A program made the translations under genes and the position numbers. Positions 1 through 40,311 of a stretch of DNA of 46,960 nt are shown here, piece by piece (position 1 is the first letter of the stretch; the number at the start of each line of letters is the position of its first letter). Origin of the DNA: a virus. The DNA lies in IMG/VR virus record IMGVR_UViG_3300045988_180211, positions 1-46,960 of that record; one strand, given 5' to 3'. Below the pieces are notes generated by a model that was not told the origin of the DNA, searched no databases, and saw nothing but the letters and a program-made list of their open reading frames with translations.

Positions 1-55
1 GCGCGGAATCCTTCGTAAAGAAGATGCAGAAGGCGTACGCCCCCGGTAAGTCCGA
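1..55 (+). repeat. Terminal direct repeat, copy 1 (identical to 46906-46960); circular-assembly overlap or terminal redundancy
   Basis: gcgcggaatccttcgtaaagaagatgcagaaggcgtacgcccccggtaagtccga is present at both ends of the window. Confidence 0.95.
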
Positions 56-7748: not shown

Positions 7749-7923
7749 GAACTCGAGGTTCTCTGGATTGTGCGCTCGCTTGGCGCTGATAGGTGGGCTC
7801 AGGGGCCCTTGTGACTGCGACCACGGTCTTGCACCGTGGGCATTTGATTACGATTGTCCCGGACGAACCCGGGGCGAAGTCGAAGAGACGGCGCCCGCAA
7901 CGCGGGCAGTTTGCTTTTTCCAT
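7744..7923 (-). CDS. Com-like zinc-ribbon protein (Mu Com family pattern)
   Basis: MEKANCPRCGRRLFDFAPGSSGTIVIKCPRCKTVV compares with Mu Com (C..C.kLLF......I.I.CPRCK). SD GGAGGAAG is present. The start was trimmed from 7977 to 7923. Confidence 0.75.
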   Translation of the reverse strand: MEKANCPRCGRRLFDFAPGSSGTIVIKCPRCKTVVAVTRAPEPTYQRQASAQSREPRVP

Positions 7924-7963
7924 CACACTTCCTCCCCAATGGGCGGAAGAAAAGGTAAACCGC

Positions 7964-9429: not shown

Positions 9430-10392
9430 TTAAGAATTCGGCTCCAAGGGCAGTGTCATTTGACCGCCAAATCGGTCGACAATCTTTTGTTCGTACTCTT
9501 CCCTGGTTTGAGATGATTCGGCCATCTCCAAAACTCTGCCAAGCTGGAAACGAAGCGCCTTGGTGCCGATGTCGCTCAGGAACTGGAACAACTTCTTGTT
9601 TGTGCCGGTATCGTGACTGTGTTTTTGTTCTCGTAAGAGCTTCAAAATTCTCCCGTTGCTTTTTGCCAACGGCGTGTATACATGAGCGATTGTGAGAGAC
9701 TTGAACTTCCATGGCCAGCCGCGCTCAGGCATAGGAATGTCATACAGTCGCGTCCATTCCTGATACAACTCTATTGGGAATTCGCTTTCGTATCGTTTTG
9801 CCTCCTCTTGAACAAAGCGTCGGAAAGCGATCAGGAATTGTTCTTTGGTAGAGTCAAGTCCAACAACCTTGTAAATAAGTTCCTGAATGCCTAGCTTTGC
9901 GCAAGCTCCAGTGATAATCGTTGCGGCTCGAATGAGGTGTTGTTGGTTTTTTGTGAGCTTCCCATCCTCGTTGGCCTTGATGATCGCTCTGCAAACGTCT
10001 ATAAGGATCGTCACGTCGTAGCCGTAGACCTCAACTTCGGGGCCATTGAGGGAGCTCTGAAATACAAGGGGTTTTTGAACTTTTTTAGAAAGTTCCGGCC
10101 CAGCATAAGCGCTTATTGTTTTCCCGCTCATGAACCGAATAAAAGCGGTTCCGCCGCCCCCCATCAACCCCAACGCTACTGCCACTCCTCTCTGGCTTAT
10201 GACGGCGGTTCGATTATCGTCGTTCAGGACGTAGCAATCGACATCAACCCCCAAGTCCTTCTGAAGGTTTCCGAAATACAGCGCTTTCAGATGCCGATAT
10301 TGAGCTGCTTTTCTAGCGATTTCGCTTCTATCTTTCGGAGTCAGAGATTTTGCTCTTGCCTTTCCTCCTTTTGATTGTTTTGTGTCTTGCAT
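9430..10392 (-). CDS. P63C-domain-like protein (function unknown), low-GC cargo gene
   Basis: N-terminal KGGKARAKSLTPKDRSEIARKAA and C-terminal FPIELYQEWTRLY...TIAHVYTPL...FQFLSDIGTKALRFQLGRVLEM match my memory of the P63C pattern. About 47% GC against about 58-60% for the genome. ATG at 10392 chosen; the track start at 10434 is a TTG. Confidence 0.6.
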   Translation of the reverse strand: MQDTKQSKGGKARAKSLTPKDRSEIARKAAQYRHLKALYFGNLQKDLGVDVDCYVLNDDNRTAVISQRGVAVALGLMGGGGTAFIRFMSGKTISAYAGPELSKKVQKPLVFQSSLNGPEVEVYGYDVTILIDVCRAIIKANEDGKLTKNQQHLIRAATIITGACAKLGIQELIYKVVGLDSTKEQFLIAFRRFVQEEAKRYESEFPIELYQEWTRLYDIPMPERGWPWKFKSLTIAHVYTPLAKSNGRILKLLREQKHSHDTGTNKKLFQFLSDIGTKALRFQLGRVLEMAESSQTREEYEQKIVDRFGGQMTLPLEPNS

Positions 10393-10540
10393 ATAGATAC
10401 CACATGAATTAAATACATGTGCAAATTCTAGCAAGCATTCGAGAAAATATCTTGCTTGCTAAAAAATTGCCCAATATAAGCGCAAAGCCCGAGTGTTCCA
10501 GACTTGAAGAGAGTGCGAAAAAGCCGCCCGGGGGAGACCC

Positions 10541-10604: not shown

Positions 10605-11102
10605 TTATGCAGAAGAAACAGAAACGTTCAGCTGGCGGTTCAAAGCATAAAGGGCTCGGGCAATAGTGTCAATTTTGGTCGCATGATGCAGATCGGTTAT
10701 GCGATTGACCTCTTGTCGAGAAACGCCCAATTTTTTGGCTAGGTCGACGGGGCGTGTCTTTGTTTCGACCATAGCATTTAAGAGCAGGACTTTAGCGATG
10801 ACGGAAGGAGGCAATTCTACGATTAGGTCTTCTGGGGAAGCGCTGGATGGGTTAGGGAACGGACGCTGCTCTTCGATGTAAAAATCGATGGCTGTAATAA
10901 GTGCGTCCAGCGCGTTAGCTTTAAGTTCCTCCATGGTGGCTGCTTCGGTCAAAGCTTCAGGGACATCCTTGAAGGAAGCAATAAATCCGCCATCGCCGTT
11001 CGGCTCAACTTGCGCGGGAAAGCGGAAAGCAGACGACACGGCAAATTTTCCTTTTCTTTTTCCGCTGATGATATCGAGGGGGAGCCACCCCCCTCGGTTC
11101 AT
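10605..11102 (-). CDS. hicB: HicB-family antitoxin with C-terminal XRE-type HTH
   Basis: FRFPAQVEPNGDGGFIASFKDVPEALTEAATMEELKANALDAL is the HicB fold pattern. The C-terminal DLAKKLGVSRQEVNRITD is an HTH. The gene starts 13 nt after the hicA stop. A GTG near 11040 with an AAGGA SD is an alternative start. Confidence 0.8.
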   Translation of the reverse strand: MNRGGWLPLDIISGKRKGKFAVSSAFRFPAQVEPNGDGGFIASFKDVPEALTEAATMEELKANALDALITAIDFYIEEQRPFPNPSSASPEDLIVELPPSVIAKVLLLNAMVETKTRPVDLAKKLGVSRQEVNRITDLHHATKIDTIARALYALNRQLNVSVSSA

Positions 11103-11114
11103 CAAACGAACTTG

Positions 11115-11294
11115 TTAACTAGGTAACCCAAGTTGTCTTTTGATCTTCTTTGCGAACGCGTCGGAGATCTCTTGGCTTGGGTGCCGCGGGCAAGTGGCTT
11201 GCTTGCCTTTGTAGTAGAGCTTGAGGTGGCGGGTGCCGTTCTCAATCCTTACCCCTGCGGCCCTTAGTTCGTCGATGAAGGTTTTATGCTTCAT
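11115..11294 (-). CDS. hicA: HicA-family mRNA interferase toxin
   Basis: MKHKTFIDELRAAGVRIENGTRHLKLYYKGKQATCPRHPSQEISDAFAKKIKRQLGL. SD GAAGGAG lies 6 nt upstream. Trimmed from the track start at 11366. Confidence 0.85.
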   Translation of the reverse strand: MKHKTFIDELRAAGVRIENGTRHLKLYYKGKQATCPRHPSQEISDAFAKKIKRQLGLPS

Positions 11295-11322
11295 AGGCAT
11301 CTCCTTCAAAACGAACACTGCA

Positions 11323-11351
11323 ACTGTACACATATTTGTGCACGTTGTCAA
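11323..11351 (-). promoter_or_regulatory. Sigma70-type promoter of hicAB overlapping an imperfect palindrome (likely HicB operator)
   Basis: The minus strand reads TTGACA-17 nt-TACAGT. The spacer and -10 contain tgcacaaatatgtgtaca, which is 14/18 self-complementary. Confidence 0.65.
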
Positions 11352-11464
11352 CAAAAATGATTGCAAAAGTCTCGCTGGGGCGGCTTGGTGATTAGTTCAG
11401 AAGGAAGGCCGCCGCCTGCGCAGTACCCTACGCTTGCACACATCACAGACGGCGGCCGAAGGGG

Positions 11465-11695: not shown

Positions 11696-12321
11696 GCCTC
11701 ACTCCCTGTTTCCGCTTTCTGATAGGGGGCTGGAAGTTCTGCCCACGCAATGACCGTGAACTCTCGTTCGTAGCCCCAAAAATCACCCCGGCCATAGGCC
11801 ATCCTTACGTAAGGCTTTTTGTTATCGCCAAAGACCGGAACCGCCGTCACGAGGTAGAGCTGCCAAAATTCAGTCTTGGGTAGTGGGACATCCGGATAGG
11901 GGTGCCAAGTCGTCATGTCGTGTCCTCCAGTAAAGCCCCGCGGATGCGAGACTTCCTTCAGTGATTGAATCGTCTTTCCCAGGTGAATGAGGCAGGCGTA
12001 AAGCGCCGGCTTGTCGCCGTGGTCGCAGGCGAGCACGATTTCCGTCACGAGGGGGTGGCGAAAAGAGAAAAGGAGGGATGAGAAATTGTCGGGGCGCCGA
12101 ACGATCTGCGCCTTGCACTCTTCGACGGAGAAGGTTTCCGCCATGCGGCGAAGATACCACTCGGCCTTTTGAAGGTCTTCCTTCTCACCCCCCTTGTAGG
12201 GCGCTCGAAGCAGGTACTTGACGGCATTGCCCAAGCAGAAGCTCAAAAGCTCAGTCAGCTCGATCACCTCATGCTCATAGTGCTCGGCGTAGTGCTGGGG
12301 GTGATTCACCATGTCTTTCAT
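11692..12321 (-). CDS. DUF3310 (SaV-like) N-domain fused to a DUF551-like C-domain
   Basis: VNHPQHYAEH...GNAVKYLLRAPYKGGEKEDLQKAEWYLRRM is the DUF3310 pattern. The C-terminus is TTWHPYPDVPLP...VIAWAELPAPY. SD GGAGG is present. ATGA overlap with the i-spanin stop. Confidence 0.75.
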   Translation of the reverse strand: MKDMVNHPQHYAEHYEHEVIELTELLSFCLGNAVKYLLRAPYKGGEKEDLQKAEWYLRRMAETFSVEECKAQIVRRPDNFSSLLFSFRHPLVTEIVLACDHGDKPALYACLIHLGKTIQSLKEVSHPRGFTGGHDMTTWHPYPDVPLPKTEFWQLYLVTAVPVFGDNKKPYVRMAYGRGDFWGYEREFTVIAWAELPAPYQKAETGSEA

Positions 12322-13189: not shown

Positions 13190-13508
13190 TTACAGTATCC
13201 CCTTTGAGCTTTCGGAAAAAGAGCGCGCGCAAAATATCAAAGACGCGGGAGCCGATGTTCCCGACGACCGCCGATGTGCACGCGGCAAAGCTTTCCGGTT
13301 GGTTCAAATCCATCACCACCCAAAAGGCCATGAGGCCGAGGAAGGCGCTGATGAGCATGTCTGAAAAAAACGTGAGGGGGCTGAACGGCTTGCAAAGCAT
13401 GTTGCTCTCCTTCCATCTTGCGAATGCGCCGAGCAGAGCCGCGGCGGCGGCAATGATTGGCATCCAAGAATCCGGCGTTTTGTAAGGCATTGGTGTCTCA
13501 CTGATCAT
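13167..13508 (-). CDS. Putative holin (multi-TMD small membrane protein)
   Basis: Hydrophobic segments WMPIIAAAAALLGAF, LISAFLGLMAFWVVM and FAACTSAVVGNIG, with a charged C-terminus. It overlaps the endolysin start. Confidence 0.6.
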   Translation of the reverse strand: MISETPMPYKTPDSWMPIIAAAAALLGAFARWKESNMLCKPFSPLTFFSDMLISAFLGLMAFWVVMDLNQPESFAACTSAVVGNIGSRVFDILRALFFRKLKGDTVNDDKPEA

Positions 13509-13562
13509 TCAATGCAACAAATTGTCGCCCGTTCGCCGCCCCCTTACTCGTCAACATTTGTA

Positions 13563-14741: not shown

Positions 14742-15327
14742 ATCGCGCCTCCGACGCTTCGTAGCCGAGGCGAGTGCGCCATCGGCGAATTTTCTCGAGC
14801 TTCACATCCAGCCAGTGAGTGCGCTTGTGTACGTCCTCGGGCAGGTCGTGCAGATCCTCGGTGCACAGGAAAAGTTCCGAGACGCGCACCGGATCGGCAT
14901 CGATGCATGCGTTGATGACTTCGCCGGCAACTTCCAAGCCCGCACGAATGGCGTCGAGCTCGTCGGCTTTGCACGTGTAGCTACCCGTCTCAACCGTGCG
15001 ATCGGAGTACCGCTTGAAGGCTTCCTGCATGGCGACCCACTCGGCGCCGTACTCGCCGGCGATGTACTCGCCGTCAACTCCGTAGCCGCGATACAGGCAA
15101 AAAGTCGCAAGCAGGATCGTCGAGCCGAGATTGAGCACGTCCGGACGCTCGAACTCGCCGCGGTGCAGTCGCAACTCGACGGCCAGCTGCACGTCGCGGT
15201 ACATGCCCTTAATTTCCTCGGCCGTCTGCAAGGACATCCTCGGCGGCTTTTCCGCATAGCGCGTCGGGTCGTAGCGCTTGTTGCGCACTTTCCTTTTCTT
15301 TGGCTGGGATCCTTCTTTTCTACTCAT
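14734..15327 (-). CDS. Hypothetical protein with basic N-terminus (early/replication operon)
   Basis: ATGA overlap with the helicase stop. N-terminus MSRKEGSQPKKRKVRNKRYD. Confidence 0.65.
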   Translation of the reverse strand: MSRKEGSQPKKRKVRNKRYDPTRYAEKPPRMSLQTAEEIKGMYRDVQLAVELRLHRGEFERPDVLNLGSTILLATFCLYRGYGVDGEYIAGEYGAEWVAMQEAFKRYSDRTVETGSYTCKADELDAIRAGLEVAGEVINACIDADPVRVSELFLCTEDLHDLPEDVHKRTHWLDVKLEKIRRWRTRLGYEASEARYG

Positions 15328-23453: not shown

Positions 23454-23483
23454 AGCCACTGGAAGCGCCAGTGGCTTTTTTTA
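23454..23483. terminator. Terminator hairpin shared by the convergent 22030 cassette and the repressor gene; the U-tract is clear only on the plus strand
   Basis: agccactgg-aagcg-ccagtggct followed by ttttttt. On the minus strand the hairpin is followed by only tttc. Confidence 0.8.
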
Positions 23484-24131
23484 TGGCCGGACGGGGCGAA
23501 AAGCCCGGACGACCGCCCCGAGGATCTTCACCTCAGTGACGGGCACGATCACGCCGGGCAAGCCGTCGGCCATGACGATCTTTCGGCCGACGATGTCCAC
23601 CCCGATCTTTCTCAAGATGACATTCCCCGCCGCTTCCACTACGAAAAACCCGGCGCGAACCGCGGCTTGATCTAGATCAATCAAAAGCACGTCCCCGGGG
23701 AAAAAGCGCGGCGCCATAGTCTCATCAGAGACTAGGAAGACCGCTAGGTTTTTCGGCAGGCCGGCGGACAAGCGCGGGTCAAGCAAAAAAGTTTCTCCAG
23801 CCTCCGCGGAAAGCAGCGGGGCGGCTGATGGTGCAAGTGGCGCGGCGGGCGAAGGAGGCGGGACGCCGGACGCTTCGGGCGGGACGGCGGCGGCGTGCGG
23901 CGCGTTCATCCACCCCGCGGGGAGCCCAAAGGCCTTTTCGATCTCTTTACAAAGCGCGCCGCCGGGCGCTCTGACTGACCCACTCCTGTTTTTCGTGCCT
24001 TGGAGGATCTGGTAAAGATAGGGATCCGCGCGGCGGCGTCCCAAGCGCGCATTTAGGTCTGCTACAGTGTAACACCCCGCCGCGATAGTCCGAAGATTCT
24101 CTATCCTTATCTCTGCTAAGCTAGACCGCAT
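23481..24131 (-). CDS. CI-like repressor: N-terminal HTH, Pro/Ala linker, C-terminal S24 (LexA-like) domain with Thr at the nucleophile position
   Basis: FLVSDETMAPRFFPGDVLLID corresponds to gDSMeP.i..GD...vD, with Lys175 in VILRKIG 37 residues later. The N-terminus ends in FGLPAGWM. SD AGGGGGG is present. Confidence 0.85.
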   Translation of the reverse strand: MRSSLAEIRIENLRTIAAGCYTVADLNARLGRRRADPYLYQILQGTKNRSGSVRAPGGALCKEIEKAFGLPAGWMNAPHAAAVPPEASGVPPPSPAAPLAPSAAPLLSAEAGETFLLDPRLSAGLPKNLAVFLVSDETMAPRFFPGDVLLIDLDQAAVRAGFFVVEAAGNVILRKIGVDIVGRKIVMADGLPGVIVPVTEVKILGAVVRAFRPVRP

Positions 24132-24169
24132 GCGATACCCCCCTTTTTTGGCAAAAAAAAGCTAAAAAA

Positions 24170-24184
24170 GTTACGCTAGGTAAT
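24170..24184. promoter_or_regulatory. Candidate operator GTTACGCTAGGTAAT (GTTAC-N5-GTAAY)
   Basis: Lies 39 nt upstream of the repressor ATG. It contains the reverse complement of CTAGCGTAAC, which also occurs at 9215-9224. Confidence 0.45.
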
Positions 24185-24261
24185 TCTTTACCCCCCTGTT
24201 CTAAAAAGGCCCTTTATAAAAAAAGTAAAGAAAGGGACGGTTTGAAAAAGGGGGGTTTGGG

Positions 24262-24276
24262 GTTACTTAGCGTAAC
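24262..24276. promoter_or_regulatory. Candidate operator GTTACTTAGCGTAAC (GTTAC-N5-GTAAC)
   Basis: 15-bp site with perfect 5-bp inverted arms. It shares TAGCGTAAC with the other two copies. Confidence 0.45.
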
Positions 24277-24865
24277 GCCATTAAAAGCGCAAGCATAGCG
24301 CAGATTTTGCGCTTTTTGCGCGCTTTTAGCTGAAATTTTTATGCCGTCCACCCCCCGACGGCGGTGGAAAAAGGTCGGCGGCGCGCGCCCAGACCGCCAA
24401 AAGCCGAAAAATTTCGAGCTGACGCCCCCGGCAAAGACCGCCGCCGCAGGCACCGGATGGGGGAACTCCTTGGGGAACAGTGCATTTTTATCCTTTAAAA
24501 TCAACACACTTGCTTTTCCTGCACGAAAAAGACAGTTGGCAAGCGGCGTCGCCGCCGCCCCTGGTGGGAGGTGCCGCCCGCCGCCAGTCCCGCCCCGCCC
24601 GGCGCTTCGGCCACCGCCACTGCCGCCACTGCCGCCCCGCCCGTTGCCGGGCAGGGTGCAGGCGAAGGCCGTGCCGGCTTGAAAAACTGGGGTCCGCATC
24701 GGTTCGGATTTAGCCGAAGGGCCCCCGGGGGCCCCATTTTCCCCTCGCTTCGCTCGGGGTGGTCGACCGAATCCCGCGCAAATTTTCAAGCTCAAATCAA
24801 CTTTAGATTTCCAAAGTTCTTTTGCGCGCCGTGGTACAGTTCGCCCATAGCAGCAGGAACCGACG

Positions 24866-25102
24866 ATGAAGCACGACGTAAACGACGAAGGTCGGCGCAT
24901 TGGGGAAGGCCACCCGAGGGCGAGGTATTCGGACGAGACGGTCGAGCAGATTCTGAGGGCGAACGAAGCTGGGGTGACCAGTCAATCGATTTCGCTGGTG
25001 CTGGGAATTCCGGCCTCAACGGTGAGGTCGATTGTGAACGGGCAAGCGCGTCGGCAGGAACCGACGGTGTGGAGGAAGCGATGCCGCAGAAGCGACCGGT
25101 GA
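24866..25102 (+). CDS. Small HTH DNA-binding protein (first early-right gene)
   Basis: GEGHPRARYSDETVEQILRANEAGVTSQSISLVLGIPASTVRSIVNG matches the G..HP.A.l.de.V..IR......s...ia...gvs...v..I pattern. SD AGGAA is present. Confidence 0.65.
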   Translation: MKHDVNDEGRRIGEGHPRARYSDETVEQILRANEAGVTSQSISLVLGIPASTVRSIVNGQARRQEPTVWRKRCRRSDR

Positions 25103-25629
25103 AGGAGGCATTAACGGCCGCCGTCAAAGCCAAGCGCAAAGTGGCAAAGCGGGACGAAGCGCCGAAAGCCGCCGCGGTGGTCGTATCGCAATCGAGCGAG
25201 CAGTTTGAGGTGATGATGCCGGACCTGTTTGCCGCATTGCGTGACGGCCTTTCGGTCTCCAAGGTCGCCAGGCAGTTGGGCGTTTCAGCCGGTCAGCTCC
25301 GCAGCTATGCGTGGCGGCATCACCGTGACGAGTACGAGCAGGCACAGAGGGACAGCGCGGACATCCTGGCCGAGAAGGCACTGGAGTCAGCGGCTGAAGC
25401 CCACCTGCAAGAGGACGTGATTGAGACGACTTACGCGGATGGGAGCGTGACGACGGCGGTAAAACGCTTCGACAACGTGCCCCGCTCGAAAGTCGCCGCC
25501 GACACGCTCTTAAAGCTCGCCGCGGCGAAGGACCCCGAACGATATGGGTCAAAGGCGGCGTCTACCGACTCTACGGCGATAGCGGGTGAAATTGCCGCCG
25601 CTCGCCGTCGGGTGACGCAGTCCTCCTAG
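25081..25629 (+). CDS. HTH protein resembling terminase small subunits (TerS-like)
   Basis: ATG at 25081 with SD GGAGGAAG. LSVSKVARQLGVSAGQLRSYAW...EYEQAQRDSADILAEKALE...KVAADTLLKLAAAKDPERYG matches a common TerS pattern from memory. The upstream part of track ORF 24571.. is low-complexity and overlaps the 24866 gene. Confidence 0.5.
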   Translation: MPQKRPVKEALTAAVKAKRKVAKRDEAPKAAAVVVSQSSEQFEVMMPDLFAALRDGLSVSKVARQLGVSAGQLRSYAWRHHRDEYEQAQRDSADILAEKALESAAEAHLQEDVIETTYADGSVTTAVKRFDNVPRSKVAADTLLKLAAAKDPERYGSKAASTDSTAIAGEIAAARRRVTQSS

Positions 25630-25785
25630 GTTTGAGGGGTTGTGGAAGAACGTGCCTCCCCGGGGCACGCAAAAATCCGGGACCAAATTCTGAAGCCGGT
25701 GGTCATGGCCGCCGACCTTGGTAGCGCAATGCCCGACGAACTGATAACCGTTGAGTTTTCGTTCCTCCTATTTCGCGGCATACGA

Positions 25786-25820
25786 GCCCTCACGGAGTAA
25801 ATTCCGTGGGGGCTTTTTTT
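25786..25820 (+). terminator. Rho-independent terminator after the TerS-like gene
   Basis: gccctcacgg-agtaaatt-ccgtgggggc is a 10-bp stem with one G-U pair, followed by T7. Confidence 0.8.
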
Positions 25821-25874: not shown

Positions 25875-25902
25875 TTGACTTTAGGCGCTACGACGCTATA
25901 AT
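25875..25902 (+). promoter_or_regulatory. Strong sigma70-type promoter of the HTH/primase operon
   Basis: TTGACT-16 nt-TATAAT with an AT-rich upstream region. It is flanked by GGCGCTA (25884-25890) and TAGCGC (25911-25916). Confidence 0.7.
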
Positions 25903-28572: not shown

Positions 28573-28758
28573 ATGAAGGAGTGCTACTTCGACCCCGCAA
28601 TGCAAGCGCACCGCGTACGCATGCGGCGTGTCTACAGAATTCAGGCCAGACGGGATTTTTTCAAAAAACACCGAGCACTGATTTTCCTTGCCGCTGCGGC
28701 CGTGGTCGGCGTTCTGTCGCTGGCGGCATGGAGGATTTGCGAATGGTTGAACGTGTAG
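28573..28758 (+). CDS. Small membrane protein (61 aa, C-terminal TMD)
   Basis: SD GGAGGACGAGGA is present. The TMD reads ALIFLAAAAVVGVLSLAAW. Confidence 0.5.
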   Translation: MKECYFDPAMQAHRVRMRRVYRIQARRDFFKKHRALIFLAAAAVVGVLSLAAWRICEWLNV

Positions 28759-28814
28759 TCGACCAAGTCGTCCGACCGGCGCGCTATGCCATTGACTTCG
28801 GTTGCTACCGCTTG

Positions 28815-28878
28815 TTTGACGATTGACGCACTACGCCCGTAGGAAACTGCCTCCCAAGTTTAGTTGGGGGGCTTTTTT
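28815..28878 (+). promoter_or_regulatory. Conserved motif TTTGACGATTGAC-N16-AAACTGC followed by a terminator hairpin plus T6 abutting the terL ATG (copy A)
   Basis: The motif spans 28815-28850. The hairpin is gcctcccaa-gtttag-ttggggggc (28849-28872), followed by T6 (28873-28878) and the ATG at 28879. Confidence 0.6.
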
Positions 28879-30426
28879 ATGGACAGACGAACCGCGCAGG
28901 AATTGGCGGAAGATTTGGCGGCGTGCTACGACGATCCGCTTCGGTTCGTCCTGTGGGCGTTCCCTTGGGGCGAACGCCCGGAAACTTCTCTCGTGAGGCT
29001 TCCCGACAAGTGGCGGGCGCAGTATCCAAACTGCGAGTACGGTCCGGACGTATGGGTGTGCGAGCTTCTTGAGGACATCGGTCGCAAAGTGCGCGCCCGC
29101 AGTTTTGACGGCCGCCACGCGGTCGATCCCATCCGCATGGCGGTGGCGTCAGGCCACGGCATTGGCAAGAGTTGCCTCACGGCGATGCTCGTTTGCTGGA
29201 TCATGGCGACGAGGCCGAACTGTAAGGGCGTTGTGACGGCAAACACCGCGTCTCAGCTCGAAACGAAAACGTGGGCTGAAATCACGAAGTGGATGAAGCG
29301 CTCCGTCGTCCGAGAGCTTTTCGAATGCCAATCGACGTCCATCACCTCCAAGGAGTCCCCCGAGACGTGGCGTGTTGACGCGCTCACCTGCCGAGAGGAA
29401 AACGCGGAATCTTTTGCCGGCTTGCACGCCGCAAGCTCAACGCCGTTCTACATCTTCGACGAAGCCTCGGCAATCCCGGAAGCTGTGTACGACGTGGCCG
29501 AAGGCGGCCTCACTGACGGTGAGCCGATGATGTTTCTTTTCGGAAACCCGACGCGAAACTCAGGCCGCTTCTTCGAATGCTTCCACAAACGAAAGAAATA
29601 CTGGGATACCCGCACGATCGACAGCCGCTCGGTGGCGATTACGAACAAGGAGCAGATCGCGAAGTGGGCCGAGGAATACGGCCAAGACAGCGACTTCTTC
29701 AAGGTGCGCGTCAAGGGTGAATTCCCGAGTCAAGGCTCGGACCAGTTCATTCCGGCGGAACGGGTTCGCGCGGCCATTGCCCGCGGCGCGCCTTCGACGA
29801 ACTCGGCTACCTGCGCGGTAGTGGGGGTGGACGTGGCGCGCTTTGGCGATGACGACACCGTGATCGTGACGCGTATCGGGCGGGACGCGGCCTCAATTCC
29901 TTTGCGCAGATACCACGGCCTTGACACGGTGCAGGTTGTAGGCAAGGTCAAGGAGCATGTGGCGATGCTCAGAAAGACGATGGGCGTGCCGCGCGTGCAC
30001 GTTTTCGTTGACGAAGGCGGCGTTGGTGGCGGCCCCGTGGACATTCTCAAAAGTGACGGCTTCCCGGTGCGGGGCGTCAACTTTGCCCAGTCTCCCGACG
30101 ACAAGGACAAGTTCCCCGGAAAGCGCGAGGAGATGTGGGATCGCATGTCCGAGTGGCTCAAGGAAGGGTCTATTCCGGACGACAAGGAACTGGCTGAGGA
30201 CTTGGTATCCCCAACGTACCAATTTGACGTTCAGGGGCGCCGAAAGCTCGAGAGCAAGAAGGACATGAAAAAGCGCGGGCTTCGCTCGCCCGATGCCGCG
30301 GACGCCTTGGCGCTCACTTTTTCTTATCGGGTGAACGAATACGCCGGCGAGTACAGCGGGCGGCGAGAGAGCCGCATTGCTGTGGGCCGACGCGAGTTCA
30401 ACCCTTTTGCAAGGTATATGCGATGA
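28879..30426 (+). CDS. terL: Terminase large subunit
   Basis: Walker A VASGHGIGKSC; Walker B FYIFDEAS; nuclease motifs VGVDVARFGDDDTV and FVDEGGVG...SPDAADAL. The true ATG is at 28879; the track start at 28864 is a TTG inside the hairpin. Confidence 0.92.
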   Translation: MDRRTAQELAEDLAACYDDPLRFVLWAFPWGERPETSLVRLPDKWRAQYPNCEYGPDVWVCELLEDIGRKVRARSFDGRHAVDPIRMAVASGHGIGKSCLTAMLVCWIMATRPNCKGVVTANTASQLETKTWAEITKWMKRSVVRELFECQSTSITSKESPETWRVDALTCREENAESFAGLHAASSTPFYIFDEASAIPEAVYDVAEGGLTDGEPMMFLFGNPTRNSGRFFECFHKRKKYWDTRTIDSRSVAITNKEQIAKWAEEYGQDSDFFKVRVKGEFPSQGSDQFIPAERVRAAIARGAPSTNSATCAVVGVDVARFGDDDTVIVTRIGRDAASIPLRRYHGLDTVQVVGKVKEHVAMLRKTMGVPRVHVFVDEGGVGGGPVDILKSDGFPVRGVNFAQSPDDKDKFPGKREEMWDRMSEWLKEGSIPDDKELAEDLVSPTYQFDVQGRRKLESKKDMKKRGLRSPDAADALALTFSYRVNEYAGEYSGRRESRIAVGRREFNPFARYMR

Positions 30427-32084: not shown

Positions 32085-33751
32085 CGCAGAGCCTCAAAAC
32101 CCGATGCGCGCAACGCTGGGAGGCGCTCAAGTCCGAGCGCTCCTCGTGGATGCCGCACTGGCAGGAAATCAGCGAAGTGCTTACGCCCCGCACGGGGCGC
32201 TTTCTCGTGAGCGACACGAACCGCGGCGACAAGCGCCACCGCGCCATTCTTGATAACACGGGGACGCGAGCGCTTCGAACTTTGGCGGGCGGCATGATGG
32301 CCGGCATGACGAGCCCGGCACGCCCGTGGTTCCGCTTGACGACGATGAACCCCGAACTCGACGAGAGCTATGAGGTGAAGGATTGGCTGGGGAAGGTCAC
32401 TGCGACCATGCAGATGATCTTCAACAAGTCGAACATTTACCGCGGGCTCCATACGGCGTATGAGGAGTTGGGGGCATACGGCACTTGCGCCGTCCTGGTA
32501 CTTGACGACTGGGATGACGTGGTGCGCTGTGTTCCGCTGACGATCGGGGAATACGCCATTGCGACGGATGGCCGTGGTCGCGTGAACACGCTGTACCGCG
32601 AGTTTCGTATGACGTGTTCGCAGATGGTGCAGGAATTCGGTTACGAGCATTGCTCCGGCGCCGTGAGGAAGGCCTTCGATGAGCATCTGTACGACGAATG
32701 GTTCACGGTGGTGAACGCCATTGAGCCGCGCAACATGCGTGATCCGGAAAAGCTCGATGCGAAAAACATGCCGTATCGGTCGGTCTATTTTGAGCCTGAC
32801 GGTGACGACAACAAACTGCTTCGCGAAACGGGCTTCAAGACGTTCCCCGCGTTGTGCGGCCGCTGGGTTGTTTCGGGCGGTGACATCTACGGTACGTCTC
32901 CGGGTATGGAGGCGCTGGGCGACTTGCGTCAGCTGCAGGATGAACAGCTCTGCAAATCGAAAGCAATCAGCTATCAGGCCGATCCGCCGGTGTTGGTGCC
33001 CGCGGACTTGAAGGACGATGAAGACTCCATGGTGCCGGGCGGCACGGTGTTCGTGGATTCCACGGCGCAGGCGCAGATGGTGCGCTCGGCGTTCGAAGTT
33101 AATCTGCGGTTGGACTTCCTGTTGCAAGACATTCAGGAAACGCATTCGCGCATCAACGAAGCCTTCTACAAAGACATTTTCCTGATGCTCACGGAGCAGG
33201 GCGGAAACCGCATGACGGCCACCGAAGTCGCGGAACGCCACGAAGAGAAGATGCTGATGCTGGGGCCGGTGCTCGATCGACTCAACAGCGAAATGCTTGA
33301 TCCGTTGATCGCCTTGGTTTTCGCGCGCATGCAGGAGCTGAACCTGCTGCCGCCGTTGCCCGAAGAGCTGCAGAACGTGGAGCTCCAGGTGGACTTCACT
33401 TCCATCCTTGCGCAGAGCCAGAAGGCCGTGACCACCAACGCCATCGACCGCTTCACCAACGCCCTAGGGGTGATTGCCGGCGTGAAAGCCGACGTGGTGG
33501 ACAAGTTCGATGCGGACTACTGGGTTGACTGCTATGCGGACGCCTTGGGTGTGGACGCCAGACTGTGCGTTCCGACGAAGAAGGTTGAGCAAATCCGTGA
33601 AGCCCGTGCTCAGGCGCAGGCTCAGCAGGCACGGATGGAGCAGGCTCAGCAGGCGGCCTCGGCTTTGAAGGATGTGTCGGCGGCAGGCGCAGGCCAGCAG
33701 ATCGACCCCATGGAGCCGCAAGACATCAACGGCATGTTCGCGGGCTATTGA
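32081..33751 (+). CDS. Portal protein (T7 gp8-type head-to-tail connector)
   Basis: DIYGTSPGMEALGDLRQLQDEQ compares with T7 ESYGRSYIEEYLGDLRSLENLQ. RMTATEVAERHEEKMLMLGPVLDRLNSEMLDPL compares with T7 ERVTAEEIRYVASELEDTLGGVYSILSQELQLPL. Confidence 0.9.
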   Translation: MTQSLKTRCAQRWEALKSERSSWMPHWQEISEVLTPRTGRFLVSDTNRGDKRHRAILDNTGTRALRTLAGGMMAGMTSPARPWFRLTTMNPELDESYEVKDWLGKVTATMQMIFNKSNIYRGLHTAYEELGAYGTCAVLVLDDWDDVVRCVPLTIGEYAIATDGRGRVNTLYREFRMTCSQMVQEFGYEHCSGAVRKAFDEHLYDEWFTVVNAIEPRNMRDPEKLDAKNMPYRSVYFEPDGDDNKLLRETGFKTFPALCGRWVVSGGDIYGTSPGMEALGDLRQLQDEQLCKSKAISYQADPPVLVPADLKDDEDSMVPGGTVFVDSTAQAQMVRSAFEVNLRLDFLLQDIQETHSRINEAFYKDIFLMLTEQGGNRMTATEVAERHEEKMLMLGPVLDRLNSEMLDPLIALVFARMQELNLLPPLPEELQNVELQVDFTSILAQSQKAVTTNAIDRFTNALGVIAGVKADVVDKFDADYWVDCYADALGVDARLCVPTKKVEQIREARAQAQAQQARMEQAQQAASALKDVSAAGAGQQIDPMEPQDINGMFAGY

Positions 33752-33770
33752 CGAATGAGGGGGACGGGCA

Positions 33771-34067
33771 TTGGAAAAATTCGCACCAAGTGAAAAGCAG
33801 GCACGAAAGGAACAGCAGGACAATGACCTTCGTTGGCTCATGAATGACCGGCGGGGTCGTCGTCTGATGATGCGGCTTTTATCGGGCGTTGGGATGTTTC
33901 GTAGCACGTACGACCCGGGGTTGAAGGACATTGCCTCAGAGATGCTCTTTCGTGAAGGCCAGAAGAATGTGGGCTATCGATTGATGTCTGAAATCAATCG
34001 GGTGTGCCCCGAGACCTATTTCTCGATGATGAAGGAATCAAACGATGGCGGAAGAAGCGGTAACTGA
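33771..34067 (+). CDS. Hypothetical conserved head-module protein (TTG start)
   Basis: SD GAGGGGGA lies 6 nt upstream of the TTG. The gene sits between the portal and the scaffold. Confidence 0.5.
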   Translation: MEKFAPSEKQARKEQQDNDLRWLMNDRRGRRLMMRLLSGVGMFRSTYDPGLKDIASEMLFREGQKNVGYRLMSEINRVCPETYFSMMKESNDGGRSGN

Positions 34068-36110: not shown

Positions 36111-36138
36111 TGCGTAGCGCAAGGCGGTCGTGAATGAA

Positions 36139-36164
36139 GGGGGCCTTGCGCCCCCTAAATTTTT
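36139..36164 (+). terminator. Rho-independent terminator after the capsid genes
   Basis: gggggc-cttgc-gccccc, followed by taaattttt. Confidence 0.65.
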
Positions 36165-36789: not shown

Positions 36790-39567
36790 ATGGCGCACAA
36801 GCATTTACAGCAAAGCTTCACGGGCGGAGAAGTGTCGCCCGCTATGTACGGTCGACTTGACGACCAAAAGTATCAGCAGGGATTGGCGACCTGCCGCAAT
36901 TTCGTGGTGCTTCCGCAGGGACCCGTGCGCAACCGCTCGGGCTTTGCCTACGTAGGAAAAGCGAAGTTCGCGGACAAGCCGGCAATGCTTTTCCCATTCG
37001 TTTTCTCCTCGGACGACACGATGCTTTTGGAGTTCGGGGACGAATACATCCGCGTCATCACGCGCGGCGGTTATGTGTCGTCTGCGGCCGGTTCGACAAC
37101 TCCCTTTGAGATCGCCACGCCCTACGCTGCGGAAGATCTTAAGGATCTGCATTACGCGCAGTCCGGCGACGTGATGACCCTGGTGCATCCGAACTACGCG
37201 CCGCGCGAACTGCGCCGATACGGTGTTCGCGATTGGCGACTCGTGCCGGTCGATTTTAGGGCACCGCTTGCCGCGCCCACCGGCCTGACGGGGGAATACG
37301 CCTGCAGCGACAAAAACGCAACCAGCGAAGAAAAAAGCGCGTACACCATTCGATATAAGGTCACAGCGATAAAGACCACGGACGAAGGAAACAAGGAGTC
37401 CGCGGCCTCTGCCGTGTGCTCGGTGACGGGCAACCTGTATTTGTCTTCGTCGAGCATCACGCTCAAATGGGGCTCTGTGCCTGAAGCGCAGCGGTATCGC
37501 GTTTACAAAACCTATTCAGGTGTTTACGGTTACATCGGCGAGGTTGAGGATACAACCTTCACGGACAACAACATCGCCAACGACCCGAGCATTACGCCGC
37601 CACGCTACGATGACCCGTTCAACCAAGCAAAGGGCATAACGTCGGTGACGGTCACCAACGGCGGTAGCGGATACACGTACGTAAATGGCGGGGTCGTTAA
37701 GAAAGCGTACAGCGCAGTGGCGACGTCCCTCAAAAGGTCAACGGAACCGCTCAAGAACCAAGAGATGCGCACGATGCGCTACGAGGCCTACAGCGGCGAT
37801 TTGGCGGCCGCAAAGGCATGGCCGTTGAGCAGTGACAAGGGGTTCCCCAGCGAGCAGGAAGTGGTTGATGCGGCCAAGCAAGGCATGGAGCTCGTGTGCA
37901 TTGACGGTAACGGCGCCGGCGCGACGTTCGAGCCGAAGTTCGCGTTCGATCGATATACCACCGGCGACGGAGAAGACAAACGATACACGACGCGGGCAAC
38001 CCTTACGGGGTTCGAAATTACGGGGGGCGGCTCCCACTATCGCAAAGCGGCGCTGTACGTTTACATGCGCGATCCTCTTGTTATGGGGCTTTACGCGCTG
38101 CGCTACGAATACACGCTCGAAGTGCGTACCAGCGCGGACGTGACGTGCGAAGTGGTCGACAGCACAGGGGGAGGCGCCGAGCTTGTCCCCATCGTTGAGA
38201 ACGGCGCGGTGGCCTCCGTCAAGGTGCGCTCCGGCGGCTCGGGCTATACGAACCCGACCATTCGTTTCACCTCTTTGGGCACAGGCTCAGGCGCCGCCGC
38301 GACGGCGAACGTAGGCTTGGCGGGTGACTATCCCGGGGCGGTGTCCTACTTTGAACAGCGCCGAATTTTCGCCGGTACGGCCGCAAGGCCTCTTTTCGTG
38401 TGGATGACGCGGCCGGGCACGGAAAGCGACATGAGCTATACGCTTCCGAGCCAAAAAGACAACCGGATCAAATTCCGCGTGGCCGCCTTGCAGGCGTCTC
38501 GCATCCGTCACATCGTGCCCCTTTCAAGCCTCATTCTCATGACGACGTCGGCTGAGTTCCGGGTCACGACGGCAAACGACGACACCTTGACGCCAAGCTC
38601 CGTCGGCGTCAAACCGCAGAGTTATGTTGGCGCGTCGAACGTCTCGCCCGTGGTCGTGAACTCATCGATCGTGTACGCCTCAGAGCGAGGCGGCCACGTG
38701 TGGGAGTTGGGGTACAACTGGCAGGCGTCGGGCTTTGTGACGGGTGACATGTGCCTTCGTGCCGCGCACCTCTTTGACGGCAAAACGGTGGTCTCCATGA
38801 CGCAGGCCAAGGCGCCTTCTCCCGTCATTTGGTGCGTGTCGTCCGACGGCGCTCTTCTCGGCTGCACCTACGTGCCCGAGCAGTCCGTGGGGGCGTGGCA
38901 TCGGCACGATACAAAGAACGGGGTGTTCGAATCCGTGGCCTGCGTTTCGGAAGGAAACGAGGATATCCTGTACGCCATGATCCGCAGAACGATCAACGGG
39001 AAGATCGTGCGCTACATCGAACGGATGCACGAGCGTGAGGCGCTCAGCCTTGATCGGTCGTTTTTCGTTGATGCCGGCGTTGAGGACGCTTATGAGGTGC
39101 CGCAGAATTTCGTCGAGAACCTGGAGCACCTGGAAGGCTGCGAAGTGGCGATTCTCGCCGACGGCAAGGTGATGCCGCGAGCCGTGGTGAAAAACGGGCG
39201 GGTTACATTCCCCGACAAGGCGGCGCGCGTCGTCGTCGGGCTTCCCATCGAGAGTGACTTGCAGACGCTGCCTGTGGCGCTCCAGACGCAGGACGGGGGT
39301 TTTGCTCAAGGGGCGATGAAGAACGTCGTTCGGGAATTCGTCCGTGTCTATCGTTCGTCGGGTGTGAAAGTTGGGGCGTCCTTTGACGATCTTTACGAGG
39401 CGGCGCCCCGCCAGTTCGAGCCCTACGGCACGCCGCCACAGTTGAAAAGCGAGAACATCGAGGTGATGTCAGGCCCTTCGTGGGATGAGTCAGGTGCGGT
39501 GTGCATCCGACAGGATGAGCCCCTTCCCCTGATGATCTGCGGCATCACAGCCGAGATCGCGCTTTGA
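36790..39567 (+). CDS. Tail nozzle (T7 gp12-like, tail tubular protein B) with inserted GG(S)GY repeat domains
   Basis: LQQSFTGGEVSP compares with T7 IKNLKGGISQQP. YFEQRRIFAGT compares with FFRNRLGFLSG. IVPLSSLILMTTSAEFRVT compares with AVPFSEELLIWSDEAQFVLT. Confidence 0.8.
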   Translation: MAHKHLQQSFTGGEVSPAMYGRLDDQKYQQGLATCRNFVVLPQGPVRNRSGFAYVGKAKFADKPAMLFPFVFSSDDTMLLEFGDEYIRVITRGGYVSSAAGSTTPFEIATPYAAEDLKDLHYAQSGDVMTLVHPNYAPRELRRYGVRDWRLVPVDFRAPLAAPTGLTGEYACSDKNATSEEKSAYTIRYKVTAIKTTDEGNKESAASAVCSVTGNLYLSSSSITLKWGSVPEAQRYRVYKTYSGVYGYIGEVEDTTFTDNNIANDPSITPPRYDDPFNQAKGITSVTVTNGGSGYTYVNGGVVKKAYSAVATSLKRSTEPLKNQEMRTMRYEAYSGDLAAAKAWPLSSDKGFPSEQEVVDAAKQGMELVCIDGNGAGATFEPKFAFDRYTTGDGEDKRYTTRATLTGFEITGGGSHYRKAALYVYMRDPLVMGLYALRYEYTLEVRTSADVTCEVVDSTGGGAELVPIVENGAVASVKVRSGGSGYTNPTIRFTSLGTGSGAAATANVGLAGDYPGAVSYFEQRRIFAGTAARPLFVWMTRPGTESDMSYTLPSQKDNRIKFRVAALQASRIRHIVPLSSLILMTTSAEFRVTTANDDTLTPSSVGVKPQSYVGASNVSPVVVNSSIVYASERGGHVWELGYNWQASGFVTGDMCLRAAHLFDGKTVVSMTQAKAPSPVIWCVSSDGALLGCTYVPEQSVGAWHRHDTKNGVFESVACVSEGNEDILYAMIRRTINGKIVRYIERMHEREALSLDRSFFVDAGVEDAYEVPQNFVENLEHLEGCEVAILADGKVMPRAVVKNGRVTFPDKAARVVVGLPIESDLQTLPVALQTQDGGFAQGAMKNVVREFVRVYRSSGVKVGASFDDLYEAAPRQFEPYGTPPQLKSENIEVMSGPSWDESGAVCIRQDEPLPLMICGITAEIAL

Positions 39568-39618
39568 CGATTGACCTCCGTAACGCGGGACAAACTGCGG
39601 CTACGGAGGTCATTTTTT
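39563..39618 (+). promoter_or_regulatory. Conserved motif TTTGACGATTGAC-N16-AAACTGC plus terminator hairpin plus T6 abutting the next ATG (copy B)
   Basis: The motif spans 39563-39598. The hairpin gacctccgta/tacggaggtc (39573-82 / 39602-11) is a perfect 10-bp stem. T6 (39613-18) and the ATG at 39619 follow. Confidence 0.6.
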
Positions 39619-40311
39619 ATGGCGAGTTATCTTAACAGCACGACGGGCGGCGTCGACTTCTACCGATTGCTTCGCGGCAGCCTTGCCACGCAGAAAGTTT
39701 ACAGCGTGGGCGAGCCTGACTCCCGCCGGGTGATTGGCGAGAAAACGGTTATCACAAACAAGCTGGGGGCTTACGTCGCCAAGGCGGGCATCGGCTACAG
39801 CATCGGTAAAGGCGCCGGCGACGCCATTGGCTCATACATCACGGCACGCGGAACGGCGTCGGCCTTGGCCTCGCAGGCGTCCGTCACGAAAGACAACGGC
39901 TACGTCGCGCAGATGGGTGTGGAGCAGGCTTTCCGTGCGGGCGAGGCGCAGATTGCCGCCATCGGCATGAAGCAGGCCGATGTGAAGGCGCAGCAGCGCA
40001 CGGCGTTCGCGGCCAACGGCATCGCTATCGGTGTCGGTTCGGCGGCCGAACTGGCGGCCTCAACGGACCTACAGGCCGAGGTCGACAAGATCACGGCGCG
40101 GCAGAACGCGCTTGCGCAAGCCTGGGGATACCGCCGGCAGCGCATGATGAGCTTTGCGCAGGCCGAGGGCCAGAGGATCATGGCCAATGCGACGAAATCG
40201 GTGGGCCGCGTGCAGATGTTTGGGGGTCTCGTCTCGACGGCATTGCAGGCCGCCGGCGGTTTTGCGAGCATCTCGCCGCTTACTCTCAAGAAACCCACCG
40301 GAGGTGCGTAA
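39619..40311 (+). CDS. Internal virion protein (T7 gp14 position)
   Basis: It sits after the nozzle. Ala/Gln-rich helical sequence. The track start at 39571 lies inside the terminator, so the ATG at 39619 is used. Confidence 0.6.
   Translation: MASYLNSTTGGVDFYRLLRGSLATQKVYSVGEPDSRRVIGEKTVITNKLGAYVAKAGIGYSIGKGAGDAIGSYITARGTASALASQASVTKDNGYVAQMGVEQAFRAGEAQIAAIGMKQADVKAQQRTAFAANGIAIGVGSAAELAASTDLQAEVDKITARQNALAQAWGYRRQRMMSFAQAEGQRIMANATKSVGRVQMFGGLVSTALQAAGGFASISPLTLKKPTGGA

Follow-up and report, generated by a model that had tools for sequence, protein, structure and literature searches.

We analyzed the viral DNA of IMG/VR record IMGVR_UViG_3300045988_180211, a stretch of 46,960 nucleotides (nt) that we refer to as the window, and focused on the segment directly upstream of its gene for the large terminase subunit, terL (positions 28815 to 28881, plus strand). 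This segment, here called copy A, is probably a phage late promoter embedded in a hairpin that would act as a terminator and mask the terL ribosome-binding site, a reading to which we assign a probability of about 0.65. Comparison with related phages argues that the element is real and nonrandom. From its anatomy, its geometry, and predicted folds we infer promoter activity, the start site, the dependence on a factor, and the efficiency of termination.

Anatomy of copies A and B

Copy A begins with the 13-mer TTTGACGATTGAC (28815 to 28827, plus strand), followed after 16 nt by AAACTGC (28844 to 28850). The original prediction had noticed that both halves recur at the same spacing further downstream. 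We confirmed this in the sequence: TTTGACGATTGAC occurs again at 39563 to 39575 and AAACTGC again at 39592 to 39598, a second site that we call copy B. The 16-nt intervals of the two copies are identical at just 3 of 16 positions, and the match is therefore truly bipartite.

In the terms of the family-wide element described below, copy A consists of a box, a spacer, and a hexamer. The box, TTTGACGATTGACG (28815 to 28828), has homologues in related phages, and its core recurs before four other late-gene starts in the window. This core, TTGACGATTGA (28816 to 28826), would span approximately -39 to -29 if transcription started at 28855. In the clade of the window, the box is formed by a short direct repeat, TTGAC-GA-TTGAC, with a period of 7 bp. 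The 14-nt spacer CACTACGCCCGTAG (28829 to 28842) differs between copies A and B and carries a single-nucleotide polymorphism (SNP) in the near-identical phages L003 and L291. It is followed by GAAACT (28843 to 28848), a weak -10-like hexamer with A at its second and T at its sixth position (A2 and T6), a classification that rests on the hexamer profile across clades. An A located 7 to 8 nt past the hexamer points to a start at C28855 or A28856, within the 5' arm of the hairpin.

The hairpin, GCCTCCCAA-GTTTAG-TTGGGGGGC (28849 to 28872), has 9 bp, of which six are G-C pairs and one is G-U, and a 6-nt loop. Six T residues (28873 to 28878) and the ATG at 28879 come next; the gene was identified as terL by its match to phrog_2. 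The sole purine run ahead of this ATG that resembles a Shine-Dalgarno (SD) sequence, GGGGGG (28866 to 28871), lies in the 3' arm. The 9-bp hairpin, the T residues, the adjoining ATG, and the place of the purine run had been described in the original prediction, and the sequence bears them out. With a G+C-rich hairpin and a U-run directly after it, copy A is predicted to be an intrinsic terminator, in which the U-run would be both the terminator tail and the spacer between SD and AUG. The copy A box is free-standing and has no link to a stop codon; the nearest credible stop is 57 nt upstream. An open reading frame (ORF) that overlaps the box (28581 to 28826) looks spurious, as five of five SNPs in it are nonsynonymous, and the 52-amino-acid ORF that ends at 28758 looks real.

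Copy B precedes the gene for a gp14-like internal virion protein (match to phrog_418; ATG at 39619). Its promoter-like element (39563 to 39596, plus strand) has the same 13-mer, spacing, and 7-mer as copy A and comprises the box TTTGACGATTGACC (39563 to 39576), a 14-nt spacer, and the hexamer CAAACT (39591 to 39596). The hairpin and start region (39573 to 39621) is arranged differently. The outer arms GACCTCCGTA (39573 to 39582) and TACGGAGGTC (39602 to 39611) form a stem of 10 to 11 bp, inside of which a 5-bp stem (39584 to 39588 with 39595 to 39599) leaves the hexamer in the loop region. The SD sequence GGAGG (39605 to 39609) lies inside the 3' arm, and the hairpin is followed by A and six T residues, so that copy B is also an intrinsic terminator by prediction. 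Its start is predicted at approximately A39603, where the 3' arm begins. The upstream stop codon lies 6 nt ahead of the 5' arm.

We estimated how often such a coincidence arises by chance. A 13-mer plus 7-mer match at a fixed spacing appeared in 4 of 150 first-order Markov simulations (P of about 0.03). On its own, the coincidence is of modest significance, and repeated 13-mers are common in this genome of 60% G+C. Context adds some weight: in the block of structural genes from the primase gene to a giant internal-virion gene, only three intergenic gaps exceed 20 nt, and copies A and B fill two of them. The case against chance rests mainly on related genomes.

The element in related phages

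We collected loci anchored on terL, tail protein B, and gp14 from IMG/VR, GTDB genomes, and metagenome contigs, and then aligned the junctions. This yielded five clades of related uncultured podophages of the Sutterella type, which have a common anatomy and differ in sequence. Clade I includes the window and phages with 83% terL identity (L289 and L290) and has the box TTGACGA(A/T)TGA. The boxes of the other clades are GATACATGA in clade II (75 to 76% terL identity; L005, L292, and L330), GGGTGCATGA in clade III (63%; L085, L083, and L325), GTCTACATAA in clade IV (65%; L307, L314, and L315), and GTTGCATTGA in clade V (67%; L296). The element that is found family-wide consists of an 11-nt box, two bases, 14 variable nt, and a hexamer NANNNT. 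Therefore, the two halves of the original prediction had to be redrawn. The first is the core TTGACGAWTGA rather than the full 13-mer, and the second is the hexamer (G/C)AAACT rather than AAACTGC, of which only A2 and T6 are conserved across phages; the bipartite element itself stands. The search in relatives that the prediction had called for returned the box-spacer-hexamer geometry upstream of terL and gp14 but not the exact 7-mer, in place of which the nearest other clade has GACGAT and AAGAAT.

To count the boxes, we searched either strand of the window and of 11 relatives with a strict pattern for each clade, which gave 33 distinct occurrences. All 33 are in the sense orientation relative to downstream late genes (terL, scaffold and capsid, internal virion, lysis, and com-like genes). 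NANNNT is present at an offset of exactly 14 in 29 of the 33, while each of the other offsets from 6 to 23 scores 0 to 4. We then profiled the hexamers of 31 sites; these were selected for NANNNT at an offset of 14 or 15, hence A2 and T6 are present in all of them. The profile resembles (G)A(N)AAT, with A4 in 21 and A5 in 18 of the 31 sites, and the next six bases are poor in A. An A is found 7 or 8 nt past the hexamer in 28 of the 31. At terL, the hexamer is GAAACT in the window, GACGAT in the 83% clade, GACAAT in L005 and L292, GAGAAT in L330, GATGAT or CAAGAT in clade IV, and CATACT in clade V. The hexamers at gp14 are CAAACT, AAGAAT, GAAGAT, and TAACCT.

Several comparisons separate the conserved from the variable parts. 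At gp14, the 83% clade has the copy B box of the window, then 14 nt, then AAGAAT. Clades III and IV each have three different 14-nt spacers, flanked by one and the same box and hexamer. Where near-identical phages differ by SNPs, these affect the spacer, the hairpin arms, and the U-run, and none affects a box or hexamer. Every clade has its own box in three to five copies, located at homologous junctions: before or after terL, behind the portal gene, and ahead of gp14. Additional junctions carry it before the lysis genes (clade I) and before the com-like gene (clades I and II), and the boxes of clades III and IV belong to a very small set of 11-mers that occur three times. In the 83% clade (L004, L289, L290, L294, and L316), homology between variants breaks at the first base of TGACGAATGA, with unrelated genes upstream, and so the box marks a recombination boundary between the early and late modules.

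Other searches were less informative. An exact scan of viral contigs for the full motif returned matches only in the same phage. The looser pattern TGACGATTGAC-N20-50-TTTTT gave about 120 loci, which were mostly unrelated, with L178 and L234 the only relevant ones. Shared 9-mers upstream of terL and repeated 11- to 12-mers were too noisy to be used alone. Loci anchored on the helicase gene, collected for the lysis regions of relatives, were useful only for L369 and L370, as the replication module is mosaic.

The conserved pattern reads as the signature of a promoter, in which a recognition box is followed by a putative -10 element of the σ70 type (T at -7, A at -11) and then by a start site. 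The original prediction had pointed out that the two TTGAC copies lie 14 and 21 nt from GAAACT, and that this is not a textbook σ70 promoter. This was confirmed, as copy A lacks a consensus pair (TTGACA/TATAAT) at 16 to 18 bp, and the A2/T6 signature of a -10 is present. The -35-like TGA is about 3 bp too close for unaided σ70 and the box differs by clade, which together suggest a phage-encoded factor. None of the σ32, σ28, σ54, and extracytoplasmic function (ECF) consensus sequences, compared by eye, fits the element.

A proposed promoter within a terminator, and rival explanations

The position of the hexamer relative to the hairpin follows a pattern. At terL sites, the hexamer ends 0 to 3 nt before the 5' arm; it abuts this arm at terL in the window and in the clades with 83%, 75%, and 76% identity, as well as at gp14 in clade III, and lies 2 to 3 nt from it at terL in clade IV. 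At gp14 of the window, the 83% clade, and L330, and at terL of clade V, the hexamer is in the loop, and the box contributes to the 5' arm or sits just upstream of it. This geometry is kept across five clades, though the hairpin sequences are unrelated. Given these positions of the hexamer, a start 7 to 8 nt further on would fall within the 5' arm or where the 3' arm begins. Late transcripts of hairpin-bearing sites are thus predicted, by the hexamer and the A at +7/+8, to start within or after the 5' strand.

Predicted folds are consistent with this geometry. RNA that reads through copy A folds at -25.7 kcal/mol with the SD sequence paired and with the U-run and AUG paired to 28837 to 28846, compared to -2.3 kcal/mol for RNA from the predicted start. 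For copy B, the values are -29.0 kcal/mol (z = -5.8, SD paired) and -4.0 kcal/mol, respectively. Over 15 sites, read-through RNAs range from -17 to -49 kcal/mol in the predictions, with the SD in the 3' arm and the AUG paired in several, and RNAs from the predicted start range from -2 to -7 kcal/mol. Natural variants preserve the stems. In L003 and L291, G28869A turns the G-U pair of copy A into A-U and makes GGAGG; in L295, a C-to-T change in the copy B hairpin keeps the pairing as G-U; and an A/G polymorphism in the hairpin of the 83% clade toggles between A-U and G-U. We saw no plus-strand terminator wholly downstream of a predicted start, either in a terminator scan of L085 (clade III) or by eye at the other sites. 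In L085, hairpins GAAAGCCG...CGGCTTTC are located about 20 nt past the predicted late starts (11816 to 11851 and 15021 to 15054). They score as terminators on the minus strand only, as if to block antisense transcription into the late promoters. The clade IV site after terL has no adjacent hairpin, and neither has the lysis site of the window (P_lys, described below).

These features lead to the following model. Terminator and consensus scans placed a terminator at 25784 to 25815 and a near-consensus σ70 promoter, TTGACT-16-TATAAT, at 25875 to 25902 (both plus strand). This promoter, the only match in a consensus σ70 scan of the window, heads an operon with a helix-turn-helix (HTH) gene and the primase gene that runs into copy A. 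Early RNA from the primase operon would stop at the copy A U-run, and any RNA reading through would have the terL SD and AUG base-paired. Host RNA polymerase probably depends on a factor made by the phage to read the box; late in development, polymerase assisted by this factor would initiate at about 28855/6. As the hexamer ends one base before the hairpin, RNA begun 7 to 8 nt further on would lack almost all of the 5' arm. Without this arm the terminator could not form and the SD in the 3' arm would be free, and the U-run would serve merely as the spacer between SD and AUG. Only RNA begun at the copy A promoter should then evade termination and be translated. The same device would operate at copy B before the gp14-like gene, with simpler versions at the com-like, lysis, and scaffold/capsid sites. 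The original prediction had proposed a late promoter with its start inside the hairpin, and the fixed-offset A2/T6 hexamer, the hairpin geometry in five clades, and the folds speak for it; some of its details did not stand, and the start is still a predicted one. Its terminator against early read-through does look like a terminator, to which we add a predicted block of translation.

A comparable device is known from phage T4, in which genes e, soc, 49, and I-TevI have late promoters inside hairpins that mask the ribosome-binding site; the late transcripts lack the 5' strand and are translated (PMC3014915). Copies A and B appear alike in that the folds of read-through RNA pair the SD and/or the AUG and the putative promoter lies in the DNA of the 5' strand. 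The difference is that the hairpin here would also be an intrinsic terminator, giving a lock on transcription and translation with a U-run that doubles as the spacer. Moreover, the T4 late promoter, TATAAATA, depends on gp55 and gp33, whereas the elements described here combine a bipartite box with NANNNT in the form of GANAAT-like hexamers, and we found no gp55 or gp33 homologue or σ-like protein in the ORFs scanned (about 65, with PHROGs and Pfam). The element works like the T4 device and is not a member of the T4 late-promoter family; its phage is also a temperate podophage of Sutterella-type hosts, unlike T4. Fold-back inhibition in IS10/Tn10 follows a similar principle. The promoter of the element itself starts inside an inverted repeat, and read-through RNA from outside has both arms and masks the ribosome-binding site. 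In IS10, it is the transposase that is protected from outside promoters, without a terminator, whereas here early and late units would be separated, at several junctions. Literature searches on Sutterella phages, late transcription in BPP-1, and IS10 fold-back inhibition gave nothing directly usable.

The same hairpins could be explained without any promoter. They would then be ordinary terminators or coupling hairpins, the boxes would be junction linkers spread by recombination, and the hexamer would be the A-tract of the terminator. In many sites the TGA of the box is the stop codon of the upstream gene, and homology in the 83% clade begins at TGACGAATGA. A-rich hexamers pair with the U-run at terL-type sites, a ribosome terminating at the copy B stop codon, 6 nt before the 5' arm, could open the hairpin, and the match within the window reaches only the P value of about 0.03 given above. 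However, this explanation does not account for an A2/T6 hexamer at one offset in 29 of 33 boxes despite varying spacers, nor for the start-like A at +7/+8. It also leaves unexplained the hexamers in loops (copy B, 83% clade, L330, and clade V) and the sites that have no hairpin (clade IV after terL and P_lys). The copy A box lies 57 nt past the nearest credible stop, and late genes downstream of two strong terminators would have no other promoter. We consider an element without promoter function unlikely.

Several observations weigh against the late promoter that we propose. The putative promoter activity is deduced from sequence patterns. At 14 bp, the distance between the -35-like element and the -10 falls outside the range in which σ70 works, and no activator, σ factor, or σ-remodelling protein was recognized by PHROGs or Pfam among the scanned ORFs. 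The A-rich hexamer of terL sites can pair with the U-run, and its conservation could therefore partly be that of a terminator A-tract. In clades I and II, the hexamer of the post-portal site lies inside the next ORF and the box doubles as the SD of that ORF; the post-terL site of clade III has TTTGAT, which lacks A2; and the spacer of P_lys, at 15 nt, is one nt longer than elsewhere. Furthermore, several sites are homologous between clades, so that the 33 sites are not 33 independent events.

As for the factor, it is possible, although we regard this as tentative, that an unrecognized specificity factor encoded by the phage reads the box and steers the RNA polymerase of the host to promoters in which TGA occupies about -31 to -29, at a distance of only 14 bp from the -10. 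T4 middle promoters have a MotA box near -30 plus a σ70 -10, and CII-dependent promoters of phage lambda have TTGC-N6-TTGC around -35. The elements described here resemble both in having a putative -10 and a phage box that replaces the spaced -35 and is closer to the -10 than normal. They differ in the box sequence, which is unrelated, and in the repeat period, which is 7 bp and not 10 bp. The scan of the ORFs detected no homologue of MotA, AsiA, or CII and no RNA polymerase, σ factor, Q, Mor/C, or Ogr, and a PDB sequence search for an activator was uninformative. The conserved 352-amino-acid HTH protein of the early region matches an Sf6-type small terminase. A 77-amino-acid HTH protein of the AlpA/excisionase type scores below the Pfam cutoffs and is encoded beside the integrase in L370; it is probably an excisionase.

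The original prediction had offered a cis-acting antitermination element as its second hypothesis, and here the closest precedent is the Q/AlpA system. Q/AlpA systems need exactly two cis elements, a binding element and, at a fixed distance from it, a -10-like element with critical A and T; a terminator follows (PMC9371919). Loading of Q and AlpA takes place on polymerase that has paused shortly after initiation. Applied to the window, the box would be the binding element, the hexamer the pause, and the hairpin the terminator that is overridden, with the late genes read from 25875. In the window, too, a candidate binding element and a -10-like hexamer stand at a fixed distance in the same range, upstream of terminator-like hairpins and before late genes, and a small gene of the AlpA family of HTH proteins lies just upstream of the lysis genes. 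Nevertheless, such a site requires a promoter -10 between the elements or just upstream of them, and the 14-nt spacers show no conservation and contain no -10, the sequence upstream of the box is mosaic, and the sites lie 3 to 14 kb from the nearest σ70 promoter. In contrast to Q/AlpA sites, the hexamer touches the terminator and the sites recur along the operon; a processive antiterminator needs one loading site, not one per block. Read-through RNA would keep the SD and AUG locked at -26 to -49 kcal/mol, and in clade IV the terminator lies upstream of the box, not downstream. The AlpA-like gene adjoins the integrase gene in L370, as an excisionase gene would, and no Q-like protein was found among the scanned ORFs. 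Antitermination of the lambda N nut or HK022 put kind does not fit either: from clade to clade, neither the sequences nor the loops of the hairpins are related, the box is unpaired at copy A and takes part in a stem at copy B, there is no conserved boxA/boxB- or put-like structure, and Rfam returned no match to a known RNA family. The second hypothesis is thus not supported, and we hold a Q/AlpA-type loading site to be quite improbable.

Alternatively, the box could act in RNA, where a Com-like zinc-ribbon protein or another phage protein would bind it, open the hairpin, relieve termination, and unmask the SD. In phage Mu, Com relieves the masked translation start of mom. The window does encode a Com-like protein (59 amino acids; 7923 to 7744, minus strand), with a homologue of 53% identity kept in L370, and all of the hairpins mask an SD. 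Yet its match to Pfam Zn_ribbon_Com, at 19.5 bits, is below the family cutoff of 22.9, and the com-like gene itself is downstream of such a box. The box has no common RNA context, as it is paired in the 5' arm at copy B and in relatives and single-stranded at copy A, and at sites in clade IV and at P_lys there is no hairpin that could be opened. An A-N3-T kept invariant at one distance along the DNA, together with a start-like A, is instead the signature of a promoter in DNA. Recognition of the box in RNA is, in our estimate, marginally less probable than loading of an antiterminator. Two further candidates were rejected. Leader-peptide attenuation was dismissed as ORFs that start in the box are not conserved (L292 stops after three codons, and frames differ between clades), and antiterminator pairing of the box with the 5' arm amounts to only 3 to 5 weak pairs, which are inconsistent between sites.

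Other late sites, genomic setting, and significance

Both copies in the original prediction are real, but the window holds five box sites, of which three are weaker than copies A and B. We call them P_A (28816 to 28848; terL downstream), P_mid (33748 to 33780; scaffold and capsid genes downstream), P_B (39564 to 39596; gp14-like gene downstream), all three on the plus strand, and P_com (7984 to 7952) and P_lys (13554 to 13521), both on the minus strand. The spacer is 14 nt in P_A (hexamer GAAACT), P_B (CAAACT), P_mid, and P_com.

P_mid, with the box TTGACGAATGAGG and the hexamer AAAAAT, follows the portal gene, and homologous sites are found there in all other clades; in clade IV, the order after the portal gene is terminator, box, GATAAT, and gene. 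The P_mid hexamer corresponds to codons 2 to 3 of the small ORF that follows (TTG at 33771), and hence the site would at best serve the scaffold and capsid genes further on.

P_com has the box TTGACGAATGACG (7984 to 7972) and the hexamer TACCTT (7957 to 7952), within a feature that extends from 7921 to 7984. The hexamer is followed by a hairpin, TTCTTCC/GGAGGAA, that holds the SD, and by the ATG (7923) of the Com-like ORF, which two conserved genes follow. In L370 (clade II), the clade II box, 14 nt, and AAACTT precede the homologous gene. The conserved cassette (7923 to 6767 in the window and 11824 to 10657 in L370, both on the minus strand) encodes the Com-like protein, a glycine-rich protein of 207 amino acids, and a protein of 111 amino acids. 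Its location between the endolysin and spanin genes in L370 suggests a lysis-related role.

P_lys (feature 13506 to 13554) has the box TTGACGAGTAAGG (13554 to 13542) and the hexamer GACAAT (13526 to 13521) ahead of the holin, endolysin, and spanin genes. Its predicted start is about 6 nt ahead of the holin ATG (13508), with no SD sequence, and the holin mRNA may be nearly leaderless. Together, the five sites would make up a late regulon, in which the scaffold/capsid site is the less convincing member.

The window represents a complete circular genome (46,905 bp, about 46.9 kb), since positions 1 to 55 are repeated exactly at 46906 to 46960 as an assembler overlap. It belongs to a temperate podophage with an integrase, a CI-like repressor, and a structural gene order like that of T7 (terL, portal, scaffold, capsid, tail tube A and B, and gp14/15/16-like proteins). 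The nearest prophages are in Sutterella wadsworthensis and in metagenome-assembled genomes (MAGs) of Sutterella/Sutterellaceae, with terL identities of 58 to 63%, which points to a Sutterella-type host. L085 of clade III is a prophage of S. wadsworthensis 2_1_59BFAA (NZ_JH815516.1). Among 50,697 deposited phage records, the best terL match has 45% protein identity. T7 has class III promoters at phi9/phi10, T-phi, and phi13. The sites after the portal and tail tube protein B genes, with a terminator after the capsid gene (36138 to 36156), are laid out in a similar way. Unlike the continuous 23-bp promoters of T7, however, the elements of the window are bipartite with variable spacers, and no phage RNA polymerase gene was found among the scanned ORFs.

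Some observations concern neighboring genes. In L291 (4222 to 5223), L006 to L008, L295, L316, L034, L036, and L327 to L329, terL has an in-frame insertion of about 333 amino acids after residue 96. It lies within the P-loop (GHGIGK|...|HN-S) and, with LMGLFLGDGG as a LAGLIDADG-like motif, resembles an intein that carries a homing endonuclease; terL of the window is without it. Positions 42801 to 46905 joined to 1 to 2396 (plus strand) form one ORF of about 2,180 amino acids across the circle junction, of which the C-terminal 790 match phrog_9880 (unknown function). Judging by where it lies, the ORF may encode a giant internal virion protein that is gp16-like and far bigger than gp16 of T7. 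In the early region, the C-terminal third of the conserved 352-amino-acid HTH protein (24571 to 25629, plus strand) matches Pfam Sf6_terminase at 28.8 bits. It is the only small-terminase-like protein and is encoded upstream of the primase operon, 3 kb from terL; this protein and the primase are the only nonstructural proteins conserved in all clades. Beside the CI-like repressor gene (23481 to 24131, minus strand), the A/T-rich, repeat-laden region at 24132 to 24560 is presumably the immunity operator/promoter region. A HicA/HicB-like toxin-antitoxin pair (10605 to 11366, minus strand) is part of the accessory region that separates the lysis genes from the integrase gene, and a P63C-domain protein is encoded at 9430 to 10434.

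What appears to be new here, judged by sequence, is the fusion with an intrinsic terminator, a box about 14 bp from the -10, and the setting in uncultured temperate gut phages. If the model holds, one segment of about 65 nt would be an early terminator, a translational lock on read-through RNA, a late promoter, and a ribosome-binding site. This would extend the principle of T4 gene e to transcription termination and to a temperate phage, in which leaky expression of terminase and lysis genes in lysogens would be costly. The element is also a candidate part for insulation in synthetic constructs. The spacing of 14 bp hints at a factor worth finding; if a specificity factor does read the box, these sites would be a new promoter class and possibly reveal a new form of σ remodelling. 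The promoter-terminator fusions would then be self-contained, insulated late modules whose left edges lie at recombination breakpoints of mosaic gut phages. The box, 14-nt spacer, and NANNNT could serve to annotate late operons in phage contigs from metagenomes and, if correct, would provide the first map of late regulation for widespread uncultured temperate phages of human-gut Sutterellaceae.

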